DNA of 64,000 nucleotides from an uncultured Ruficoccus sp. (GTDB lineage Bacteria; Verrucomicrobiota; Verrucomicrobiia; Opitutales; Cerasicoccaceae). Below, piece after piece: positions 31,207 to 58,567 of this stretch (position 1 is its first letter; each line of letters opens with the position of its first letter). The notes under the pieces are model-generated. The model searched no databases and was not told where the DNA came from. It saw only the letters and a list, made by a program, of their open reading frames with translations. Made by a program: the position numbers and the translations under genes. The stretch spans positions 192,001-256,000 of the forward strand of contig OZ223510.1 in the NCBI GenBank assembly GCA_965140785.1, read 5' to 3'.

Positions 31207-31238
31207 GTTTGAGAGTTTAAAAGTTTGAAGGTTTGAGC
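31207..31238. repeat. Four tandem 8-mers (GTTTGAGA GTTTAAAA GTTTGAAG GTTTGAGC), orphan arm
   Basis: Visible 8-bp periodicity in the spacer between the two pntA parts; no inverted partner seen. Confidence 0.7.
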
Positions 31239-36226: not shown

Positions 36227-36337
36227 GAATGGCTAATCGTTGATTGTAAAATGGTTACGTATAAAATAAATAACCTATATCCACTCGAGCTTCCCATCGA
36301 CACGCAGCCATTTAGCCATTTAACCCTTTAACCATTT
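36227..36337. repeat. Inverted arrays of 7-8-mers around an AT-rich spacer
   Basis: Left GAATGGCT AATCGTT GATTGTA AAATGGTT (36227-36256); right AGCCATTT AGCCATTT AACCCTTT AACCATTT (36306-36337). Confidence 0.7.
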
Positions 36338-37658: not shown

Positions 37659-38880
37659 ATGCCCTGGTATCTGTATCTCGCGCTCAAGCAGCTCTTTCCC
37701 TCCGGGCGGCTGGTGTCGCTGTTCTGCGTCGTTTCCGTCATCGGCGTCATGCTGGGCGTGGCCGTGCTACTGATCGTCCAAAGCGTCATGAACGGCTTCG
37801 GCAAGGAAATCCGCGACAAGCTGGCCGATACCGACGGGCATGTGCGCATCCAGGGGGCCGGCATTATCTACCAGACCTGGCCGCTGATCGACATGGCCGA
37901 GCAAATCGAAGGAGTCGAGGCCATCTCCCCCTACGCCGAGGGCATGGTCATGATGATGCACCGCAATATCCCGGCCTTTCCCTTTGTGCGCGGGGTGGAT
38001 GTCTTCGAGGAGGAGCCGATCATTCCTTTCGACCAGTACCTGCGTTCGGGTAAATTCGAAGATCTCGACGACGAGACGGTCTTTCTCAGCGGCGGACTGG
38101 CCGCCTCCATCGGCGCCTATGTGGGCTCGACCGTGGAAGTGTACTCGCCGCTCATGCTCGAAAAACTCAAGCACGACGAGGTGCTGCTGCCGCGCGAACT
38201 GGAAGTGGCGGGGATCTTCGAAACCGGCTACAACCAGATCGACGCCAACACCATGATCGTGACTCTGCGGCTGATGCAGGAGCTTTACGGCCTCGGCAAC
38301 GGCGCCCACGGCGTCTCCCTGCGCCTGAAGGACCGCAACCAGGCCGGGGCCGTGGCCCAGCAGCTCAACGACCAACTGGAGCCGCCGTACCGGGCGAGCA
38401 CCTGGCTCGACCGCAATAGCGACATGCTCTCCGTCCTCGTTCTGGAAAAGACGGTCATGTCGTTTATCATCCTCTTTATCGTGCTGGTGGCGGCCTTCTC
38501 CATCGCCAGTTCGCTCTACACGGCGGTTGTCCGTAAAACCCGCGAAATCGGCCTGCTCGGGGCCATGGGGGCGCGTTCGCGCCAGACGGCGGCGATTTTC
38601 TGCCTTCAGGGGCTGATCATCGGGGCGGTCGGCTCGCTCCTCGGGGTGGGCTTCGCGTTGTTAGCGCTCCACTACCGGGTGGACATTATCAATGCCATCA
38701 CCTCGGCCACGAACAGCCAGGACATCATGCTGAAGTTCTACAAGTTCCGCGAACCGCCCGTCCACTACGAGACGCTGGACTTTGTGCTGACCGTGGCCTT
38801 TGCCCTTTTGGTTTCCACCCTGGCCGGGCTGATTCCCGCCTGGTTCGCCGCCCGCCTAAAACCCGCCGACGCCCTTCGCA

Positions 38881-38888
<8 letters not shown>
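37659..38888 (+). CDS. Lipoprotein-releasing ABC transporter permease (LolC/E family)
   Basis: GVMLGVAVLLIVQSVMNGF, KTREIGLLGAMG, PAWFAARLKPADALRNE. Confidence 0.92.
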
Positions 38889-39561
<673 letters not shown>

Positions 39562-39574
39562 TTTAATCTTATTT

Positions 39575-40022
39575 ATCTCATACAGAGGCACAGGGGCACA
39601 GAGATGAGAGAGAACGAGATTGGAGACAGGGTTATTCATACCGCGATTGAGTTACACCGGGATCTTGGACCTGGGCTGTTTGAGTCCGTCTATGAGTCCA
39701 TCCTTGCCCATCTACTAGAAGAACAAGGACTTTGTGTTCAACGGCAGGTTGCCATCCCGGTCATTTTTCGCGGGTTGCGTTTTGAAGAAGGTTTCGTGCA
39801 GACCTGATTGTCGAAAATAAAGTCATTCTTGAATTAAAATCAGTCGAAGCGATCACACGTGCCCATAATAAACAATTACTGACCTATTTGAAGCTTACCG
39901 GGTTGAAACTTGGTTACATCCTTAATTTCGGAGAAGAATTGATGAAAACCGGTGTCAGCCGAGTTATCAACGGACAGCTTTATTCTTGATCATCTCCGTG
40001 CCTCCGTGCCTCCGTGTGAGAT
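39575..40022. mobile_element. Putative GxxExxY cassette bounded by 33-bp inverted arms built of 8-mer (GCACGGAG-like) repeats
   Basis: Left ATCTCATACAGAGGCACAGGGGCACAGAGATGA (39575-39607) matches the reverse complement of 39990-40022 (ATCTCACACGGAGGCACGGAGGCACGGAGATGA) at 28/33. The interior is visibly AT-richer than the flanking genes. Confidence 0.65.
39604..39989 (+). pseudogene. GxxExxY protein (PD-(D/E)XK nuclease-like), one-base deletion near 39792-39795
   Basis: GPGLFESVYE. Restoring one base gives ...FEEGFRADLIVENKVILELKSVE...KQLLTYLKLTGLKLGYILNFGE...INGQLYS* (128 aa). Confidence 0.9.
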
Positions 40023-40077
40023 CCCTCTTAAAAAAGACATTCCCAAAACGCCTCCGGGCCGCTAAGTTCATTCGCTT

Positions 40078-41022
40078 ATGGCAGACAAGACCCCTTTGCG
40101 TTGCGGGGTGGCCGGGGTCGGGTACCTCGGGCAGCACCACGCGCGAATTTACCATCAGCTCGACGGCTGCGAACTGGCCGGCGTGTACGACGCCGACCCC
40201 AAGCGCGCCCGTGAAATCGCCAAGCAGCACGGCGGGGCGCACGTGTGTGAAACCCTGGAAGAGTTGGGCGAGCGCTGTGAGGCCGTCAGCGTGGCCGTGC
40301 CGACCGACCGCCACACCGAGGTCGCACTGCCGCTGCTGGGGCAGGGCTGCCACCTGCTGATCGAGAAGCCCATCTGCCCCACACTGGAGGAGGCCGAACG
40401 GATCACCGAGGCGGCCACCTCGCGCGGCTTGCTGGTGCAGGTCGGCCACATCGAGCACTACAACCCGGTCATGGCCTTTCTGGAAAAACACGTCAAAGAC
40501 CCGCGCTTCATCACGGCGGACCGGCTAGCGGAGTTCAAGATCCGGGGCGTGGAGGTCAGCGTGGTGCTCGACCTGATGATCCACGACATCGGCGTCATCC
40601 TGCAACTGGTCAAGTCGCCGCTGATGCGGGTGGACTCGGTCGGGGTCAATGTGCTGACCAAGAGCGAGGACATCGCCAACGCCCGCCTGACCTTCGAGAA
40701 CGGCTGCGTGGCCAACATCAACACCAGCCGCGTCAGCCGCAAGCCGGTGCGCGAAATCCGCGTCTTCCAGCCCAACGCCTACCTCTCGCTCAATTTCGCT
40801 GAGCAGAAAGGCCACCTCATCCGCAAAGGCAAGCTCGGCCTGAGCAAGAAGAACATCCCGATCGAAAAGGGCGAACCGCTCCTGCTCGAGCTGGCCTCCT
40901 TCACCGACGCCGTGCGCAAACACACCGCCCCGAAGGTGGACGCCGCTCTCGGCCGCAGCGCTCTGGAGGTCGCCTTGAAAATCACCCAGCAAATCCGCGA
41001 GGCCAACGAACTGCGCGGGTAA
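40078..41022 (+). CDS. Gfo/Idh/MocA oxidoreductase, probable UDP-GlcNAc 3-dehydrogenase (GnnA-like)
   Basis: GVGYLGQHHAR, LIEKP, VGHIEHYNP, VVLDLMIHD; directly upstream of lpxB. Confidence 0.8.
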   Translation: MADKTPLRCGVAGVGYLGQHHARIYHQLDGCELAGVYDADPKRAREIAKQHGGAHVCETLEELGERCEAVSVAVPTDRHTEVALPLLGQGCHLLIEKPICPTLEEAERITEAATSRGLLVQVGHIEHYNPVMAFLEKHVKDPRFITADRLAEFKIRGVEVSVVLDLMIHDIGVILQLVKSPLMRVDSVGVNVLTKSEDIANARLTFENGCVANINTSRVSRKPVREIRVFQPNAYLSLNFAEQKGHLIRKGKLGLSKKNIPIEKGEPLLLELASFTDAVRKHTAPKVDAALGRSALEVALKITQQIREANELRG

Positions 41023-41140: not shown

Positions 41141-42322
41141 ATGAGTCTGCCAGCCCCCAGTACGCAACCCGACTTGCTCATCCTCGCCGGTGAGCACTCC
41201 GGCGATCAGCATGCGGCCCGCGTGCTGCGCGAGTTGCGGGCGGCGCAGCCGTCACTGAGTGTGTGCGCGATCGGCGGCGAGGAGTTGGAGAAGGCCGGGG
41301 CGCAGCTTTTGTTCGACCTGACACAGCACTCGGTGGTGGGCTTGTTCGAAGTTTTAAAGAACTACGGCTTTTTCAAAAACCTGTTTGAGCAGACGGTGGC
41401 GTGGATCAAAGAGCACCGCCCGCGCGCGGTCTGCTTTGTCGATTATCCGGGGTTCAACCTGCGGCTGGCCGAGCGTCTGCACAAGGAAGGGATCAGCGTC
41501 AAAGGCGGCGGCGATGTATCCATGCTCTACTACATCAGCCCGCAGATCTGGGCCTGGAAAGGGCACCGGCGCTTCAAGATGGCCAAGCTGCTCGACGCTC
41601 TGGCGGTGATTTTTCCGTTCGAGATCGAGTGCTATAAGGACACCGATCTGCCCGTGACCTATGTGGGGCACCCCTTTACCGCGGACGACTATGAGCTGCC
41701 GCTGCGCCATACCCCGGAGGGGCCGATTTTGCTACTGCCCGGCAGCCGCAAGACACCCGTGCGGCGGATATTTCCGCTCATGCTGCGGGCGTTGGAGCGG
41801 CGTTACCGGACGGGCGCACTGGCCGGGGAGGGGATGGGTTCGCCGGACGAGCGAGCCGTGGCGATTTACCCCGGCGAAGCTATCGCTGAGGTACTGGAGG
41901 CGGAACTGGCGGCCCTCCCGTCTTTAAAGAACCGCGTGAGCCTGGAGCCCGGCGGTGCGGTGGCCGAGGCGGCGGCGGTCTTGACCAGTTCGGGCACGAT
42001 GTCGCTCAACTGTGCCCTGGCGGGCATCCCGGGCGCGATTGTTTACCGGGCCAACCCGCTGACGTATTTCATCGGGCGGCGGCTGGTGAGCATCGACCGG
42101 CTGGGCATTGCCAATATTCTGCTCGAGCGCGACGTCTATCCCGAGTACCTGCAAGGAGCGGCTAGCCCGGAGGCGCTCAACCGAGAACTGGAAGTCTGCC
42201 TGCACGACTCGGCCCGCCTGACGATTACCCAGAAAGCCGCCGCCGAGTTGATCCACCTGCTCGGTGAAGAGCGTGAAATGTCTCCGGCGGACTGGCTGCT
42301 GAAGTTCCTTCCGAAAGCCTAG
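41141..42322 (+). CDS. lpxB: Lipid-A-disaccharide synthase
   Basis: AGEHSGD, VDYPGFNLRLA, YISPQIWAW, IFPFE, YVGHP, LLPGSR. Confidence 0.95.
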   Translation: MSLPAPSTQPDLLILAGEHSGDQHAARVLRELRAAQPSLSVCAIGGEELEKAGAQLLFDLTQHSVVGLFEVLKNYGFFKNLFEQTVAWIKEHRPRAVCFVDYPGFNLRLAERLHKEGISVKGGGDVSMLYYISPQIWAWKGHRRFKMAKLLDALAVIFPFEIECYKDTDLPVTYVGHPFTADDYELPLRHTPEGPILLLPGSRKTPVRRIFPLMLRALERRYRTGALAGEGMGSPDERAVAIYPGEAIAEVLEAELAALPSLKNRVSLEPGGAVAEAAAVLTSSGTMSLNCALAGIPGAIVYRANPLTYFIGRRLVSIDRLGIANILLERDVYPEYLQGAASPEALNRELEVCLHDSARLTITQKAAAELIHLLGEEREMSPADWLLKFLPKA

Positions 42323-52528: not shown

Positions 52529-52679
52529 TTTAACCACGGATGACACGGATAGCACAGATGAAGAAAAGTATCCGTGTTATCCGTGAAATCCGTGGTTAAA
52601 TATTGGTTATCTAATCAAGCGCGAGAATTGGCATGACTCTCTCCATTTAACCTCTGTGCGCTCTGTGTCCTCTGTGGTT
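52529..52679. repeat. Gene-less inverted tandem 9-mer element (CACGGAT units) plus an extra orphan right arm
   Basis: Arms 52529-52559 and 52570-52600 are 27/31 complementary with a 10-bp loop; second right arm CTCTGTGCGCTCTGTGTCCTCTGTGGTT at 52652-52679. Confidence 0.88.
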
Positions 52680-58434: not shown

Positions 58435-58567
58435 TTAACCACAAAGGCACAAAGGTACAAAGGGCTGGGAAGGGAAGTTTGAGGAGGGGTATCTGCCTAC
58501 CTCTGTTGACGAATTTGGGATTTCGAATCCTCTGAATTTCTTTGCGCCTGCGCGCCTTTGCGGTGAA
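58435..58567. repeat. Gene-less inverted tandem 8-mer element (CRCAAAGG units)
   Basis: Arms 58435-58462 and 58540-58567 are 21/28 complementary, with a 77-bp spacer. Confidence 0.75.

Follow-up and report, generated by a model that had tools for sequence, protein, structure and literature searches.

A frameshifted GxxExxY nuclease gene between repeat-built inverted arms is probably a decayed copy of a small selfish DNA cassette

We analysed a stretch of 64,000 nt from an uncultured Ruficoccus sp. of the Verrucomicrobiota (assembly GCA_965140785.1, contig OZ223510.1, positions 192,001 to 256,000 of the forward strand), referred to below as the window. At window positions 39575–40022, in the spacer between a lolD-like gene and a gnnA-like gene, lies a 448-bp unit that consists of a single GxxExxY gene enclosed by inverted arms (Table 1). 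The unit is AT-richer than its surroundings, with a GC fraction of 0.46 compared with 0.654 in both flanking genes. At full length the inverted arms measure 40 nt, are 80% complementary (32/40) and have 368 nt between them; a shorter version of the same arms (39575–39607 and 39990–40022) covers 33 nt, of which 28 are complementary. The start ATG (39604–39606) falls within the left arm, and the stop codon (39987–39989) directly abuts the 33-nt right arm. The arm pair scored 20.5, against a mean of 7.9 (sd 1.9, 95th percentile 10) for random pairs, which were 191 pairs of flanks taken from different genes and scored with a mismatch penalty slightly stricter than that used for the value of 20.5. 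The initial annotation of this DNA had described an AT-richer GxxExxY gene between lolD and a gnnA-like gene, with arms of three 8-mers matching at 28 of 33 positions, and our analysis confirmed that description in every point.

The two halves of the gene match PF13366 (PDDEXK_3) with E values of 2.9e-14 and 1.4e-19 (53.8 and 71.1 bits; cut-off 22) and TIGR04256 (GxxExxY) with E values of 7.9e-15 and 1.7e-19 (55.3 and 70.3 bits; cut-off 35). Because the halves fit PF13366 positions 2–61 and 62–117 in frames one base apart, we read them as a single gene with a 1-nt frameshift. Unshifted, the first frame ends at a TGA (39805–39807), and the window copy is left without one uninterrupted reading frame. 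A sequencing error is a possible cause, since the sole run that contains the whole stretch (X1, unchanged) is probably that of the source assembly. The motif and the catalytic residues are present in the window copy (the first half has GLFESVY, the second RADL...ELK), and in an alignment of 35 sequences (A1) the residues G24, E27, Y30, D67, E77 and K79, numbered as in the orthologue from genome G003, are each at least 90% conserved. The AlphaFold2 model of the GxxExxY protein is confident (pLDDT 95.5). The predicted fold is PD-(D/E)XK, within which no subclass can be named. Searching solved structures by sequence gave no true relative, the best match being a leucine-rich repeat protein (E 0.0045), and searches of PADLOC and PHROGs returned nothing beyond weak Cas4-like matches (E about 0.001–0.003). 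The part of PMC3424549 that covers the family lists its function as unknown. The GxxExxY family occurs very widely: when species genomes were scanned, relatives were encoded in 589 of the first 600 matched stretches.

Decay is common among these genes. By hand count across 61 genomes of the order (the order set), 16 PF13366 matches hold internal stops and about 45 span fewer than 100 of the 117 profile positions. A programmed frameshift was considered and rejected: eight other split copies, four of them from genome G070, break at differing profile positions, which we therefore read as decay. Seven of the eight shift in the same direction and one shifts in the other. The four G070 copies (L275 and L276–L278) are broken at one profile position, about 62–65, and are probably duplicates of one broken copy; if so, a dead cassette would still have been copied.

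We found that arms of this kind recur around the family. The source assembly (G000; 4.36 Mb in 50 contigs) holds five PF13366 genes, and all five lie inside inverted arms of about three tandem 7–10-nt units, with a repeated arm word that differs in each cassette. PF13366 is present in 31 of the 61 genomes of the order set, across which 27 of the 34 GxxExxY genes tested reached an arm pair score of at least 12. With the stricter score, 15 of 33 genes lay above the 99th percentile of the 191 mismatched flank pairs, and 8 lay above their maximum. The seven loci under the threshold (L032, L034, L039, L045, L047, L051 and L053) stay in these counts, and some of them show short matching pieces, suggesting arms with indels. 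A wide set was drawn from a collection of species genomes by taking the best 80 loci matched by a close paralogue (identity 52–72%); 76 of them had enough flank. Of these, 61 reached a score of 12, against a high mismatched-pair control (104 of 375 pairs) that we attribute to the recurrence of the same word class between loci. The record labels of the wide set include Geobacter, Verrucomicrobiota, Bacteroidota, Chloroflexi, Acidobacteria, cyanobacteria, Planctomycetota and others. In the usual layout the gene has a purine-rich array on its 5' side and the complement of that array on its 3' side; this layout is exact in 24 of 53 loci and is seen with extra arrays in several more; arm polarity is reversed at four loci, and a few have a hairpin–gene–hairpin arrangement. 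One Bacteroidetes metagenome record (L128, 1569 nt) has its GxxExxY gene among at least 23 arm-like arrays in the same orientation, spaced 34–36 nt apart and forming a long, regular series on both sides of the gene.

Comparison with related genomes revealed filled and empty sites. The C3 cassette of G000 (L002, about 940–1415) is an insertion of about 476 bp in a stop/start overlap that is uninterrupted in all four congeners. It is flanked by a 17–18-bp direct duplication comprising the ribosome-binding site, the upstream stop and the downstream start, and because this junction piece is duplicated on both sides, both host genes remain intact. At C10, a cluster of a hairpin cassette, a GxxExxY gene and a further hairpin stands in place of the 38–40-nt spacer of G001 and G002. 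Aligning the lolD–gnnA junction across relatives, as had been suggested for the window, located the cassette in G002 and G003 as well (83–84% identity over 2142 nt), with an intact gene in G003. In G001 the spacer at this junction measures 112 nt and contains a solo array of three units with a different class of tip, and in G024 and G029, which belong to other families, the spacers are about 48 and 29 nt, as judged by alignment coordinates. These comparisons show that intergenic sites gain and lose the unit as DNA and that the window copy entered the lolD–gnnA spacer before G000, G002 and G003 split.

The G003 region has further features of its own. A second cassette of the same subfamily and arm class (L010, 3625–4044) stands just downstream of gnnA, which places gnnA between two cassettes; G004 likewise has a GxxExxY match just downstream of gnnA. 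In G003 the lolD frame also crosses the left arm (L010, about 2180–2211) and ends at a TGA overlapping the cassette ATG (ATGA), so that the arm encodes the final 11 LolD residues.

The strongest evidence for mobility comes from genome G035, in which two different loci bear full-length cassettes and further loci bear at least eight near-identical derivatives of about 330 nt. Long and short copies have their ends in common, and also a sharp left boundary. The derivatives retain codons 2–43 and the last 13 or so codons, with 189 nt deleted, and their identity with the full-length copies is 83% over 216 and 106 nt. No target-site duplication was evident by eye in this family. Deleted multi-copy derivatives thus arise, and judged by its sequences G035 shows the pattern expected of an autonomous element accompanied by an amplified derivative with an internal deletion. 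On this evidence we consider that the window unit is probably a decayed copy of a small selfish DNA cassette, in which one gene for a GxxExxY nuclease of about 125 residues lies between terminal inverted arms. The proposal in the initial annotation that gene and arms form a compact mobile cassette is supported by the strong enrichment of GxxExxY genes for such arms, by the filled and empty sites, by emptied copies and by the co-variation of arms and protein described below. Its suggestion of an autonomous member fits the pattern of the full-length G035 copies with their derivatives and does not apply to the window copy, which is frameshifted and so is not autonomous now.

We found that both the words and the geometry of the arms follow the cargo protein. 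In a nearest-neighbour test of 79 GxxExxY cassettes, the arm 6-mer Jaccard index was 0.129 against a null of 0.047 (sd 0.010), a value that none of 5000 permutations equalled. The share of cassette pairs with a common arm 6-mer was 14% at less than 35% protein identity and rose to 79% at 65–80%. Since neutral DNA would be scrambled at 55–65% protein identity, the retention of arm words argues for selection. Arm geometry was compared with that of PF05635, a family of four-helix-bundle proteins of the type found in 23S rRNA intervening sequences (IVSs). The median number of repeat copies is 2.7 in GxxExxY flanks, where most periods are 8–9, and 4.2 in PF05635 flanks, where 34 of 44 arrays have a period of 7 (Mann–Whitney p 2.6e-9). 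The relevant part of PMC4990558, citing Lin 2006, reports PF05635 proteins as homopentamers, and a resemblance to the Avd protein of diversity-generating retroelements has been reported as well (PMC10053308). We infer from these comparisons that the number of arm units reflects the assembly of the protein. Between orthologous copies, both arms have changed in step (alignment A2): the inner unit is CACAGAG/CTCCGTG in G000, and G002 and G003 have CACAAAG/CTTTGTG. This concerted change is as compatible with symmetry at the DNA level, produced by arm conversion or by selection acting on the two ends as a pair, as it is with a stem.

Table 1. Features of the window around the GxxExxY cassette and gene-less arrays elsewhere in the window
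Feature	Position	Strand	Details	Method
Left (5') arm	39575..39614	+	tip ATCTCA, then three purine-rich 8-mers; ATG at 39604 inside	inverted-repeat search
Period-8 array in left arm	39582..39603	+	consensus ACAGAGGC, 2.8 copies	Tandem Repeats Finder
GxxExxY gene, codons 1–64	39604..39795	+	PF13366 positions 2–61; TIGR04256; holds motif GLFESVY	
GxxExxY gene, codons 65–128 and stop	39795..39989	+	one base back, 1-nt loss at about 39795; D...E-x-K; PF13366 positions 62–117	
Right (3') arm	39983..40022	+	three pyrimidine-rich 8-mers, then tip TGAGAT; overlaps stop codon	
Period-8 array in right arm	39994..40016	+	CTCCGTGC, 2.9 copies, 100% match	Tandem Repeats Finder
FtsX/MacB-type permease	37659..38888	+		
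lolD-like ABC ATPase gene, upstream host	38881..39561	+	PF00005 E 1.8e-32; TIGR02211 E 1.1e-66, below curated cut-off	
gnnA-like gene (UDP-GlcNAc 3-dehydrogenase-like, GFO/IDH/MocA), downstream host	40078..41022	+	NF040723 E 1.2e-59, below cut-off	
LpxB	41141..42322	+		
Gene-less hairpin	52535..52594	.	three 9-mers CACGGATnn, 8-nt loop; arm class of C3 GxxExxY cassette; pair C39:244535-244594	
Solo array	52651..52676	.	three 9-mers (CCTCTGTGC-like); no partner arm found	
Array	58440..58566	.	CACAAAGG x3 (58440–58463); weak inverted partner at about 58541–58566, under pairing threshold	partner by eye
8-mer array	36308..36337	.	CCATTTAA x3.8, further word class; possible partner at about 36227–36260	partner by eye
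Array	31207..31236	.	GTTTGAAA x3.8; class enclosing PF05635 gene on contig C47; no partner seen	

The cassette stands in a run of genes that all lie on the + strand (permease, lolD-like, cassette, gnnA-like and lpxB), and the stop of the lolD-like gene is 13 nt ahead of the left arm. In a second run with the same organism label (X2), which has about half of the sampled words, the lolD contig ends at 39565 and the next starts at 40164; none of the X2 contigs spans the cassette or a joint without it, which could mean that the assembly broke at a repeat or that the allele differs. A third run (X7) gave nothing for this region, and none of the seven runs listed for this DNA is an RNA run.

Gene-less arrays occur both in the window (Table 1) and throughout the source genome. 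Within the window, the exact arm of the cassette does not recur: matches at three mismatches or fewer numbered six, against 4.03 expected. In G000 as a whole, the arm word classes of four of the five GxxExxY cassettes recur, by eye, as gene-less pairs, and there are about 45 gene-less pairs, of several word classes, against five GxxExxY genes. Samples of 400 kb from other genomes gave no pairs in G031, G027 or G044 (142 kb), all of which are without GxxExxY matches, and 2, 0 and 1 pairs in G052, G070 and G046, which have such matches; these samples are small, and G000 itself has 2 pairs per 400 kb. The loops of 25 gene-less G000 pairs (40–300 nt) show no relation either among themselves or to the cargo genes, and tblastn with 10 cargo pieces gave only chance matches in them. 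The idea that gene-less look-alikes are emptied copies is not supported for the window, where the arrays are of other word classes, and for these 25 pairs, and it holds for two other cases. One is the G035 derivatives. The other starts from a G003 cassette (L077, 2814–3526, minus strand), in which CACAAAAAGG-type arms surround a frameshifted gene for a protein of about 218 residues of the MUG113/T5orf172 type with a homing-endonuclease-associated repeat; in G000 only the first 60 nt or so of this open reading frame (ORF) remain, inside the same arms.

Several observations weigh against a cassette moved by its own nuclease. Other cargo is found in like arms: both PF05635 genes of G000 lie in inverted tandem arms, and across the order 23 of 28 PF05635 genes are armed at the threshold, against 3 of 164 mismatched pairs. 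Two further G000 cassettes with three-unit inverted arms (C14:33645-34110, L085; C25:205137-205540, L086) carry ORFs of 132 and 106 residues that matched no Pfam, PADLOC or PHROG family; the 132-residue ORF resembles ESM Atlas clusters of hypothetical proteins (score 0.96). At the C34 site, G000, G001 and G002 have a GxxExxY gene, and G003 has a different ORF of 176 residues (L068, 2220–2930), which matched no Pfam family. As the left arm is of the same class, this is a swap of cargo inside like arms. Cargo without a nuclease in the same architecture means that the nuclease is not needed for the design as such and that a shared mover need not be the GxxExxY protein. The C25 cassette is common to G000 and G003. 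In its place, a terminator hairpin lies in a 125-nt spacer of G001 and G002, and a different hairpin is present in G004; this site looks like replacement of a whole spacer and not a simple insertion. Nor did we see a regular target duplication: flanking direct repeats with a score of at least 8 occur at 5 of 27 cassettes, against 6 of 206 mismatched pairs, and because they vary in length and position where they are present, we rejected target duplication as the rule. The unrelated loops mean that no amplified non-autonomous family is seen in G000. A first, smaller Mantel-type test of 26 cassettes, since superseded by that of 79, found no link between arms and protein (r 0.05; 596 of 2000 permutations as high). 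Finally, co-variation of arms and protein is also expected from co-inheritance of the unit, which contributes to the signal.

An alternative that we regard as possible but doubtful is one in which the arms are a general hairpin vehicle moved by an enzyme encoded elsewhere, and GxxExxY, PF05635 and the other ORFs are passengers, perhaps kept for some other benefit to themselves or to the host. Unrelated cargo in one architecture, the different ORF of G003 in a GxxExxY-type arm class at C34 and the excess of gene-less pairs over GxxExxY genes in G000 all speak for such a vehicle. So does the joint distribution of the two main cargo families over the 61 genomes (26 with both PF13366 and PF05635, 5 with PF13366 only, 5 with PF05635 only and 25 with neither), a tally that takes no account of genome size or kinship. 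A mover blind to its cargo, however, does not predict that arm words track protein identity, and between cargo families the arm units differ sharply in number and period. G035, moreover, has full-length elements that encode GxxExxY only, yet have amplified derivatives. We know of no candidate mover here, and no search for one was made.

Spread of a homing type, which we consider unlikely, would have the nuclease cut gene-less hairpins or spacers with matching arms, after which repair from a filled copy would insert the gene with the arms serving as homology. The gene does sit exactly at the position of a hairpin loop at the loci with the usual layout, gene-less counterparts exist for most G000 arm word classes, cargo differs within like arms at C34, and the homing-endonuclease-associated repeat occurs in another cargo. 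The C3 insertion, by contrast, entered a site that is hairpin-free in all four congeners, arms of 25–40 nt are short for homologous repair, and the spread of empty hairpins would be left unexplained.

Pairing of the arms in messenger RNA so as to loop out the gene had also been put forward in the initial annotation, and folding does predict it: for positions 39560–40040, both the minimum-free-energy and the centroid structure pair the arms around the gene (z −4.66; none of 100 shuffles was as stable). We found no trace of selection at the RNA level to go with this prediction. In the sense orientation, arm mismatches show no excess of G-U over A-C (22 versus 26 in the order set and 48 versus 55 in the wide set), and transversions are the largest mismatch class (39 and 119, respectively). 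Without a G-U excess, arm complementarity looks like symmetry at the DNA level, and in the sequences we see no sign of selection for an RNA helix. In a comparison of words with spacers, arm mismatches came to 6.4% at the phases that are invariant in the 5' arm and to 11.9% elsewhere (p 0.09), with a clear fixed period in only 13 of 26 arm pairs. An RNA-level function, in which the stem would loop the gene out of the operon transcript, hide its start codon and be processed by RNase III, thereby insulating the operon and silencing the nuclease, is very unlikely in our view: it can draw on the predicted folds, on the ATG within the stem, on a window cassette in which we found no terminator-like site or convincing promoter and on the cutting by RNase III in vitro of the equivalent IVS stem of Coxiella (described in the portion of PMC4990558 on that stem), but it is at odds with the mismatch pattern and leaves the insertion polymorphism, the amplified deletion derivatives and the cargo-specific repeat geometry unexplained.

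Returning to a selfish cassette as the preferred reading, we propose the following working model. Each arm, made up of a short tip and three phased 7–9-nt words, would serve as an end of the element, to which the cargo protein would bind as an oligomer. Cutting by the nuclease would take place at or near the arms, perhaps at arm hairpins on single-stranded or cruciform DNA, and host repair or recombination would finish the copying into spacers or into hairpins sharing the arms. Copies that lack a working gene would rely on intact copies in the same cell. The arms could also pair in the operon transcript, where, by analogy with the 23S IVS, RNase III would cut the stem; such cutting would be a tolerated by-product and not a selected function. 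A role of the nuclease in moving the arms is plausible, though unproven.

More tentatively, the cassettes may belong to a class of minimal mobile elements in which a small oligomeric protein, either a nuclease or an Avd-like pentameric four-helix bundle, recognizes phased-word inverted arrays on either end of the gene that encodes it. Word number and spacing would then match the assembly, with three 8–9-mers for the nuclease and four to five heptamers for the pentamer; the 23S IVSs would be members that landed in rRNA, and GxxExxY would be a new transposition or homing enzyme that uses host repair alone.

If the cassette reading is true, a role is found for the GxxExxY family, whose members are the genes of tiny selfish elements, and the odd placement of GxxExxY and PF05635 genes inside operons is explained. 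It would also tie the cassettes to the origin of rRNA intervening sequences, which PMC4990558 discusses as open since about 1990; the same paper recalls an old idea that the ORF of the IVS serves mobility. PF05635 genes have been reported between cas genes (PMC3936711). For genome annotation, such genes and hairpins would be insertions and not members of the operons in which they stand.

The literature covered here (on GxxExxY, on PDDEXK_3, PF13366 and TIGR04256, on 23S IVSs and on PF05635 and TIGR02436; subscription journals and family notes lay outside this scope) contained no description of a GxxExxY cassette or of its arms, and the cassette family is apparently undescribed. Curators' notes presumably link TIGR04256 with TIGR02436.

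Among known systems, the REP/REPIN–RAYT pairs (REPtrons), with which the initial annotation had compared the cassette, are alike in part of their working. In both, a single small gene lies between inverted copies of a repeat that also occurs, for the cassettes as far as word class goes, without a gene, forming intergenic hairpins, and in both the arm sequence follows the clade of the protein. The enzyme, however, is no RAYT: the predicted fold is PD-(D/E)XK in place of a Y1 HUH transposase, and the protein matched only PF13366 and TIGR04256. Unlike REPINs, the arms are arrays of three phased words and not REP palindromes, and G000 has no REPIN-like population of near-identical doublets, its gene-less pairs having unrelated loops. 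The GxxExxY gene, unlike that of REPIN–RAYT systems, is itself multi-copy and has been transferred across phyla.

Miniature inverted-repeat transposable elements (MITEs) with their parents, and mobile insertion cassettes, share with our cassettes the terminal inverted repeats, the filled and empty sites and the passenger ORFs between like ends. The multi-copy, internally deleted derivatives that keep the ends of the parent, seen in G035 and not in G000, are likewise MITE-like. Unlike MITE parents, the cassettes encode no DDE, serine or tyrosine transposase and make no regular target-site duplication, and a full element is only about 0.5 kb long, with a nuclease of about 125 residues. Free-standing homing endonuclease genes resemble them in being small nuclease genes placed exactly between conserved host genes, patchy among relatives and often decayed, and one sister cassette carries MUG113/T5orf172 with its homing-endonuclease-associated repeat. 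Such genes have no repeat-built inverted arms and a single cognate site, whereas the cassettes are found in many spacers that are unrelated.

Of the systems described so far, the ORF-bearing 23S rRNA intervening sequence comes closest. The cassettes differ from it in standing in a spacer of a protein operon and not in helix 25 or 45 of 23S rRNA, in carrying a predicted PD-(D/E)XK nuclease (PF13366) and not a four-helix-bundle S23p/PF05635 protein, and in having arms of three 8–9-nt units and not four to five heptamers. In the sections of PMC4990558 that describe it, the Coxiella IVS is a unit of 428–444 nt whose terminal inverted repeats give a stem of 28 bp, with two to four tandem heptamers directly before the start of a decaying ORF. 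Like IVSs of the Coxiella, Leptospira, Brucella and Xanthomonas type, as far as those sections describe their arms, the cassette is a unit of 0.4–0.45 kb with a single small, decay-prone ORF in its loop, terminal inverted repeats that can form a comparably long stem, tandem short repeats in the 5' arm ahead of the ORF start and a purine-rich ribosome-binding region within that arm.

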